A stretch of DNA of 2,535 nucleotides, taken from the IMG/VR virus record IMGVR_UViG_2671180439_000006. One strand, 5' to 3'. The notes below the pieces were generated by a model. That model was not told the origin of the DNA. It saw nothing but the letters and a program-made list of their open reading frames with translations, and ran no database searches. Shown piece by piece: positions 803 through 1,858 of this stretch. Made by a program: the position numbers and the translations under genes. The DNA comes from a virus (Duplodnaviria > Heunggongvirae > Uroviricota > Caudoviricetes). The first letter of the stretch is position 1. Each line of letters opens with the position of its first letter.

Positions 803-1076
803 GGCTCAGAGCTGGGCGCGTCACTACCAGCAGATCGCCCGTGAAGAGAAAGAGGCAGAACTGGCAGACGACATGGAAAAAGGCCTGCCCCAGCACCTGT
901 TTGAATCGCTATGCATCGATCATTTGCAACGCCACGGGGCCAGCAAAAAAGCCATTACCCGTGCGTTTGATGACGATGTTGAGTTTCAGGAGCGCATGGC
1001 AGAACACATCCGGTACATGGTTGAAACCATTGCTCACCACCAAGTTGATATTGATTCAGAGGTACAAAACGGATGA
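771..1076 (+). CDS. gam: Gam, RecBCD (and SbcCD) nuclease inhibitor, short GamS-type form, 101 aa (3-aa C-terminal extension relative to the 98-aa lambda GamS)
   Basis: Translation [101 protein letters not shown] matches lambda Gam. Strong SD. Stop TGA 1074-1076 overlaps the bet ATG. Confidence 0.93.
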
Positions 1077-1858
1077 GTACAGCACTCGCAACGCTGGCAG
1101 GGAAGCTGGCTGAACGTGTCGGCATGGATTCTGTCGACCCACAGGAACTGATCACCACTCTTCGCCAGACGGCATTTAAAGGTGATGCCAGCGATGCGCA
1201 GTTCATCGCATTGTTGATCGTCGCCAACCAGTACGGCCTTAATCCGTGGACGAAAGAAATTTACGCCTTCCCTGATAAGCAGAACGGCATCGTTCCGGTG
1301 GTGGGCGTTGATGGCTGGTCCCGCATCATCAATGAAAACCAGCAGTTTGATGGCATGGACTTTGAGCAGGACAATGAATCCTGTACATGCCGGATTTACC
1401 GCAAGGACCGTAATCATCCGATCTGCGTTACCGAATGGATGGATGAATGCCGCCGCGAACCATTCAAAACTCGCGAAGGCAGAGAAATCACGGGGCCGTG
1501 GCAGTCGCATCCCAAACGGATGTTACGGCATAAAGCCATGATTCAGTGTGCCCGTCTGGCCTTCGGATTTGCTGGTATCTATGACAAGGATGAAGCCGAG
1601 CGCATTGTCGAAAATACTGCATACACTGCAGAACGTCAGCCAGAACGCGACATCACTCCGGTTAACGATGAAACCATGCAGGAGATTAACACTCTGCTGA
1701 TCGCCCTGGATAAAACATGGGATGACGACTTATTGCCGCTCTGTTCCCAGATATTTCGCCGCGACATTCGCGCATCGTCAGAACTGACACAGGCCGAAGC
1801 AGTGAAAGCTCTTGGATTCCTGAAACAGAAAGCCACTGAGCAGAAGGTGGCAGCATGA
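1073..1858 (+). CDS. bet: Bet (Red-beta), single-strand annealing recombinase, 261 aa
   Basis: The 261-aa translation ([94 protein letters not shown]...) is recognisably lambda Bet. ATG 1073 overlaps the gam stop (ATGA). Stop TGA 1856-1858. Confidence 0.97.

Follow-up and report, generated by a model that had tools for sequence, protein, structure and literature searches.

A T-to-C transition in the gam stop codon of a decayed Escherichia coli prophage gives a 101-residue Gam and an ATGA overlap with bet

A single T>C transition has replaced the gam stop codon TAA by the glutamine codon CAA in the stretch of DNA analyzed here (2,535 nt; hereafter "the window"), which belongs to the remnant of a lambdoid prophage in E. 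coli. Gam thereby gains three C-terminal residues, and its reading frame now ends at a TGA that overlaps the start codon of bet. We consider it probable that the change is a recent, derived stop-loss in the decayed prophage of one E. coli sub-lineage and that it has been nearly neutral. The gam variant is an ordinary point mutation, and a special function is nowhere indicated.

Structure of the gam–bet junction

The gam ORF of the window codes for a Gam protein of 101 aa that terminates in …DSEVQNG, 98 aa being the usual length. At the junction, the gam frame reads GTA (Val, 1062–1064), CAA (Gln, 1065–1067), AAC (Asn, 1068–1070), GGA (Gly, 1071–1073), and TGA (1074–1076). In the common allele, the nine bases from 1065 to 1073 comprise the stop codon, the 5 nt between the genes, and the first base of the bet start codon, and the TGA that follows is an unused in-frame backup stop. 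The coordinates of all features are collected in Table 1.

The two genes are co-directional, and the stop codon TGA and the start codon ATG share two bases, as is canonical for a −4 overlap. The ATGA overlap named in the original prediction is therefore present, although stop and start do not share the A, as had been stated, but the T and the G (1074–1075). A 1073 is the third base of the glycine codon, and bet codon 2 begins with A 1076. The Shine–Dalgarno sequence of bet, GAGGT, is located inside the last gam codons, 9 nt before the bet ATG, and both its sequence and its spacing are untouched by the SNP.

Table 1. Features of the window, with positions counted from its first base
Feature	Position	Strand	Evidence
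IS1A right end (3′ end of insB and terminal inverted repeat)	1..294	+	Homology break, RefSeq, Pfam
cIII (54 aa)	419..583	+	ORF; RefSeq "protease FtsH-inhibitory lysogeny factor CIII"; Pfam PF02061
kil (47 aa)	552..695	+	RefSeq; Pfam PF06301
gam, GamS-type ORF	771..1076	+	ORF and translation, matches to PDB 5MBV and 2UUZ, Pfam PF06064
bet Shine–Dalgarno sequence GAGGT	1059..1063	+	Sequence; annotated ribosome_binding_site in phage 434 OL657227.1 (L130 1289–1293)
T>C transition, gam stop TAA to CAA (Gln)	1065	+	Mismatch to PCN061, alignment, allele survey
Added gam codons CAA AAC GGA (Q-N-G)	1065..1073	+	Translation and alignment
ATGA, bet ATG (1073–1075) overlapping the new gam TGA (1074–1076)	1073..1076	+	ORF list
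bet (261 aa, RecT-family annealase)	1073..1858	+	ORF, RefSeq annotation, Pfam PF03837
exo (226 aa, lambda exonuclease)	1855..2535	+	ORF, RefSeq annotation, Pfam PF09588

Comparison of the junction with lambda and its relatives

In the lambda genome (NC_001416; gam 32816–33232, bet 32025–32810, exo 31348–32028), the gam stop codon (32816–32818) is followed by 5 nt and then by the ATG of bet. Alignment of the junction gives GGTATAAAACGAATGAG for lambda, GGTATAAAACGGATGAG for phages 2G7b and SfI, and GGTACAAAACGGATGAG for the window, which divide into GGTA-TAA-AACGA-ATG, GGTA-TAA-AACGG-ATG, and GGTA-CAA-AACGG-ATG, respectively. The alignment bears out the lambda arrangement on which the original prediction was built, namely that TAA directly follows …DSEV a few nucleotides before the bet ATG. 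It equally confirms that a stop codon has become a sense codon relative to lambda, and the window translation, …DSEV followed by CAA AAC GGA TGA, contains the three predicted additional residues Q-N-G. Lambda gam itself ends at the TAA and not at the downstream TGA. Further downstream, the bet TGA and the exo ATG of the window overlap in another ATGA (1855–1858), the same as in lambda; the C allele thus gives the operon two successive −4 overlaps (gam–bet and bet–exo).

From position 295 onward, the window is 98–99% identical to many lambdoid phages, among them 2G7b, PhiR11_1, SfI, 434, and Stx phages. The T>C transition at 1065 is the sole difference from the nearest relatives at the junction. 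The G at position 1072, where lambda has an A, represents the common non-lambda state and is found in 112 of 120 IMG/VR loci among the matches listed, the other 8 having A. The equivalent of 1065–1067 is TAA in lambda, 434, 2G7b, SfI, 75/02 Stx, SEN34, and the E. coli genome PCN061, and the window has lost this stop codon; the C is the derived state. Shigella phage 75/02 Stx (85% aa identity in Gam) and Salmonella phage SEN34 (72%) both show the arrangement GAGG-NA-TAA, 5 nt, ATGA, and the backup TGA is kept in lambda, 434, 75/02 Stx, and SEN34.

PCN061 provided the best match to the window among 5,426 complete E. coli genomes. Its remnant at the argU site (NZ_CP006636.1 585870–588404) is identical at 2,534 of 2,535 nt in a base-by-base comparison, and the IS1A junction and flanking genes are shared as well. 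The only difference is position 1065, where the window has C and PCN061 has T; for PCN061, RefSeq accordingly annotates a normal 98-aa Gam (WP_000995439.1) that ends 5 nt before bet. A synonymous A at position 1043 (CAA for glutamine, CAG in most phages) is present in the window, PCN061, and several E. coli prophages and in no listed phage record.

Reality of the C allele

The window corresponds without mismatch to nt 2–2536 of CXYN01000016.1, a contig of the E. coli draft assembly GCA_001268805.1, and this contig differs from PCN061 at 5 of 8,536 aligned nt. Among the contigs carrying the C allele, five loci were examined, one from an isolate assembly, two from ENA metagenome assemblies (two BioSamples), and two from Logan assemblies of SRA runs. 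The four further contigs (ENA metagenome and Logan SRA) are identical to the window across the overlap, and the C allele was found solely on contigs of this kind. The exact 101-aa protein occurs under four NCBI accessions (HBN2053248.1, HCD5527467.1, HGU5583779.1, and MFO9974441.1) and on 6 contigs according to the cluster table or 15 according to the contig look-up. The 98-aa version of this sequence, in comparison, is carried by 1,000 contigs or more.

Because the C at 1065 is repeated in independent assemblies, it is a real allele of a lineage very close to PCN061. The variant is thus reproduced in independent data, which disposes of the base-calling error (T rather than C at 1065) that the original prediction had allowed for. 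A planted or artificial mutation was also considered and was rejected in view of the exact source contig together with the four further contigs identical over the overlap.

Distribution of the C allele and of extended Gam forms

Alleles were counted with 30-mer queries built so that no 28-mer seed could miss position 1065. The T 30-mer matched 3,112 E. coli records (3,106 genomes), and the C 30-mer had 0 matches among E. coli records. As a control for a short-query artifact, a 71-mer covering 1030–1100 was used; it retrieved the junction from 3,003 records of E. coli and 165 of phages, none of them at ≥99% identity. The best matches of the 71-mer were 70/71 (98.6%) in E. coli genomes and 69/71 (97.2%) in phages, the phage value being 69/71 rather than 70/71 because the A at 1043 is missing from the phage records. 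The null result for the C allele stands, since the 71-mer control likewise had no match at ≥99% identity.

In pattern scans of IMG/VR, GTDB representative genomes, and JGI metagenomes, no codon beginning with A, C, or G was found at this site, and those of IMG/VR also revealed no second- or third-base changes at the stop codon, including the alternative stops TGA and TAG. The TAA pattern itself was found at 120 or more IMG/VR loci, all of which have TAA among the matches listed. These scans require exact flanks and miss diverged junctions, for which a protein-level search was added. Of the 134 Gam sequences from this search, 93 are 98 aa long, and nearly all full-length sequences end no more than 1 residue from that point. 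The Gam of the window, with 101 aa and the C terminus DSEVQNG, departs from this typical end point (98 aa, ∼DSEV/ESEE), a difference at the level of the allele in a protein that is still a member of the family.

The sole other comparable extension among the 134 sequences is P0104, which is extended by two residues (100 aa, …ESEEQK). Its DNA (contig of Logan SRR13870719; L134 2796–2805) reads GAA CAA AAA TAATG, the TAA overlapping the bet ATG by one base. When P0104 is compared with SEN34 (GAA TAA GACAA ATG), it becomes apparent that, as in the window, the ancestral stop codon has undergone a first-base T>C change, that Gam runs into the spacer between the Shine–Dalgarno sequence and the ATG, and that the new stop overlaps the bet start. 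In contrast to the window (+3, QNG, ATGA at −4), P0104 gained only two residues (QK) and reached a TAATG overlap (−1) via further substitutions, in a lineage that is 77% identical. Because P0104 is an independent extension, extended Gam forms recur but are very rare; as to how common such junctions are, a question raised with the original prediction, the survey therefore finds them very rare, with the C allele present in one E. coli lineage.

Four other sequences (P0039, P0040, P0067, and P0125; 113 aa) have tails that correspond to the +1 frame of window positions 799–1113, which runs across the junction into bet. They come from other assemblies, in which gam either carries a frameshift or was misread in sequencing.

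The prophage remnant

The stop-loss allele of gam belongs to a lambdoid (DLP12-like) prophage that has decayed heavily and of which a remnant is left at the argU tRNA site. Phage homology begins at position 295 in all phage matches, and the sequence before it is annotated as IS1A transposase in the RefSeq record of PCN061; on contig L125, the IS1 ORF is matched by Pfam DDE_Tnp_IS1. The IS1A truncates phage ea10, the junction lying within the ea10 3′ end, and the upstream DNA, including pL, N, and nutL, has been replaced. The IS1A end next to the phage DNA corresponds to 1–294 in the window and to 5582–6294 in L004.

In PCN061, the order of genes is cusS, IS1A, cIII-kil-gam-bet-exo, partial int, tRNA-Arg, and fimZ, and the phage DNA amounts to a 2.7-kb remnant. 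A related pig isolate (L133) possesses at the same site a larger DLP12-like defective prophage, with IS1A further upstream, that carries a partial N gene, nin, rusA, quuD, and lysis genes. In view of the larger prophage of the pig isolate, the window lineage has lost pL, N, and nutL, which suggests an IS1-mediated deletion.

Two terminator-like hairpins with T-tails are located at 370–389 (upstream of cIII) and at 720–737 (upstream of gam); by their position, they are putative counterparts of lambda tL2b and tL2c. With N and nutL deleted, both hairpins would limit read-through from IS1. Transcription of gam-bet-exo is probably weak, because pL and N are lost and N antitermination is missing. 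All five ORFs are intact, so that some expression of the remnant, or some selection on it, may persist.

Lambda, 434, SfI, and 2G7b have a longer GamL frame of 138 aa, with three T at the site where the window has four (754–757), and the additional T breaks this frame in the window. The GamL ORF starting from the ATG at 650 leaves the frame and stops at 802, and the GamS ORF (ATG 771, preceded by AGGAG at 759–763) is intact. A broken GamL beside an intact GamS fits GamS being the form that matters.

Effect of the stop-loss on Gam

Residues 1–98 of the window protein match lambda Gam of PDB entries 5MBV_A and 2UUZ_A with E = 3e-61, as befits a full-length member of the lambda Gam family. The product is assigned to PF06064 and shares a 90% cluster with 1,844 Gam sequences. 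The GamS constructs used for crystallization and cryo-EM end at V98, and over residues 1–98 the window protein is 98% identical to them. The contacts with RecBCD are described as provided by the N-terminal helix and the acidic DNA-mimicking surface of Gam, with the C terminus unmentioned (PMC5218532). Within the family, proteins of 97–100 aa are found, and their tails are variable (DSEV, ESEE, DLED, DEGQ, and DEE).

Judging from sequence, the added QNG is likely tolerated by Gam. The near-absolute conservation of TAA could, however, mean that the normal stop is under selection, and the variant would then carry a mild cost instead of being neutral. Our search of the literature found no experiments on C-terminal additions to Gam. 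A C-terminally His-tagged GamS for cell-free systems was considered as a precedent for tolerance and dropped; the commonly used His-tagged construct, Addgene 45833, is reported to be N-terminally tagged.

Effect of the stop-loss on bet translation

In the common allele, the gam stop codon lies 5 nt before the bet ATG, between the Shine–Dalgarno sequence GAGGT and the start codon. Translational coupling is reported to work best at spacings between −4 and +3 and to extend as far as about +40 (PMC12548453), and close spacing of any kind permits coupling (PMC1480536). The original prediction that the ATGA overlap newly creates a tight coupling of gam and bet that is missing in lambda therefore finds no support, since the +5 spacing of lambda is already within the coupling range (PMC12548453, PMC1480536). 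For the same reason, the stop-loss can at most modulate coupling.

How strong such a modulation might be is disputed. In the synthetic operons of Tian and Salis, the re-initiation constant k was 0.0072 and flat from 0 to +25, and it reached 0.022 (∼3-fold) at −4 (PMC4538824). A review considers this peak at −4 inconsistent with other studies, in which −4 equaled +3 (PMC12548453). By analogy with such operons, gam-dependent synthesis of Bet may rise modestly at −4. Predicted mRNA folding, calculated for segments of four sizes, gave the same minimum free energy structures and the same accessibility of the Shine–Dalgarno sequence and ATG whether position 1065 was C or T. The Shine–Dalgarno sequence of its own and the predicted folding, without an allele-specific inhibitory structure, argue against a strict dependence of bet on gam translation. 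A search of the literature for direct experiments on coupling between lambda gam and bet found none. In published work, exo depends on the bet–exo ATGA overlap, and bet uses a lambda ribosome-binding site (PMC11934132).

Proposed origin of the variant and alternative explanations

T>C at 1065 destroyed the gam TAA in the remnant of a sub-lineage near PCN061. In all lambda-type Red operons, the gam frame can be written as TAA-NNN-NNA-TGA and spans the 5-nt spacer and the bet start, so that each such operon has an unused backup stop two codons beyond the true one. Ribosomes passing 1065 therefore stop three codons later, at the TGA within the bet ATGA. The outcome is a Gam extended by QNG to 101 aa and a canonical −4 overlap of start and stop. 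The stop-loss costs only three residues and lands exactly at −4 because, across a spacer of 5 nt, the gam frame and the TGA are in register. Near-neutrality would follow from three circumstances: bet retains GAGGT at the same distance, a ribosome terminating at the ancestral +5 position would already be on the bet initiation region, and with pL and N gone the operon would probably be poorly expressed anyway. We infer from these points that the stop-loss is probably neutral. Such a course has precedents, as gene overlaps often arise by disruption of the upstream stop codon, which adds a few apparently neutral residues (PMC1480536), and the frequency of the −4 motif and the ease with which it evolves are attributed to the start codon, which gives three of its four bases (PMC12548453).

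The alternative that the −4 ATGA overlap functionally retunes the operon, tying Bet synthesis tightly to Gam by termination–reinitiation and altering the Gam:Bet ratio, is unlikely. The ancestral +5 spacing was already within the coupling range (PMC1480536, PMC12548453), and bet has its own Shine–Dalgarno sequence at unchanged spacing, so that de novo initiation should dominate. Moreover, predicted mRNA folding is the same in both alleles, and the allele is limited to one near-clonal lineage with a promoterless remnant and is absent from the phage records (0/165). These points have to be set against the facts that the ATGA overlap is real in the window, that E. coli ATGA overlaps support termination–reinitiation (PMC6728339), that the bet–exo pair of the same operon already uses ATGA (PMC11934132), and that k_reinitiation was 0.022 at −4 compared with 0.0072 at 0 to +25 (PMC4538824), a peak that disagrees with other work (PMC12548453). 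By extension from the same published rates, the change from +5 to −4 might be pictured as a natural tuning mutation that would lift re-initiation ∼3-fold and lock Bet to Gam in a domesticated Red module used by the host; we regard this as very unlikely.

If QNG impaired the folding or dimerization of Gam or its binding to RecBCD, the change could be a step in prophage decay, a mild loss of function that is tolerated or favored. Other signs of decay at the locus are the IS1 truncation, the partial int, and the broken GamL frame, and the 98-aa end point is very strongly conserved (93/134, with nearly all full-length sequences ≤1 residue away). However, natural Gam tails differ in sequence and can be one or two residues longer or shorter, the published RecBCD contacts are made by the N-terminal helix and acidic surface, with the C terminus unmentioned (PMC5218532), and gam, bet, and exo are without other inactivating change, which together make this explanation quite improbable. 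It is extremely unlikely that the C stems from faulty sequencing or assembly or was introduced artificially, the true base at 1065 being T and gam ending normally. Such an error would be in line with the closest complete genome, PCN061, differing from the window at 1065 alone and with the C allele missing from the complete E. coli genomes and phage records surveyed, but not with a C in the isolate assembly, the two ENA metagenome assemblies, and the two Logan SRA assemblies, all matching the window, nor with four separate NCBI accessions for the 101-aa protein.

Significance and comparison with known systems

With regard to Red recombination and the inhibition of RecBCD, the recent stop-loss teaches nothing new and matters little. 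For annotation, it explains the 101-aa Gam in a few E. coli drafts. The route to an ATGA overlap is already known, and the 101-aa protein is already deposited in NCBI. The gam–bet case nevertheless offers a natural snapshot of how an ATGA overlap emerges from non-overlapping neighbors by one SNP, with the backup stop acting as a buffer. In addition, the C and T alleles form an isogenic natural pair (−4 versus +5) for the disputed boost of re-initiation at −4 (PMC12548453).

Compared with the lambda Red operon, the window has the same genes in the same order, Gam residues 1–98 are 98% identical to lambda GamS, and the bet Shine–Dalgarno sequence GAGGT, its distance to the ATG, and the bet–exo ATGA are all alike. 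The two operons differ at the end of gam, where lambda has TAA, a +5 spacer, and a 98-aa GamS, whereas the window has CAA, a −4 overlap, and a 101-aa Gam. Further differences are the A of lambda in place of the G at window position 1072 and the GamL frame, which is open in lambda and broken in the window.

The gam–bet junction also resembles known ATGA overlaps that arose by loss of the upstream stop codon. In both, the genes are co-directional, the upstream ORF extends to the next in-frame stop, and few residues are added. Whereas the known cases are fixed between species, the gam–bet overlap is a polymorphism within a species, one SNP away from its ancestor.
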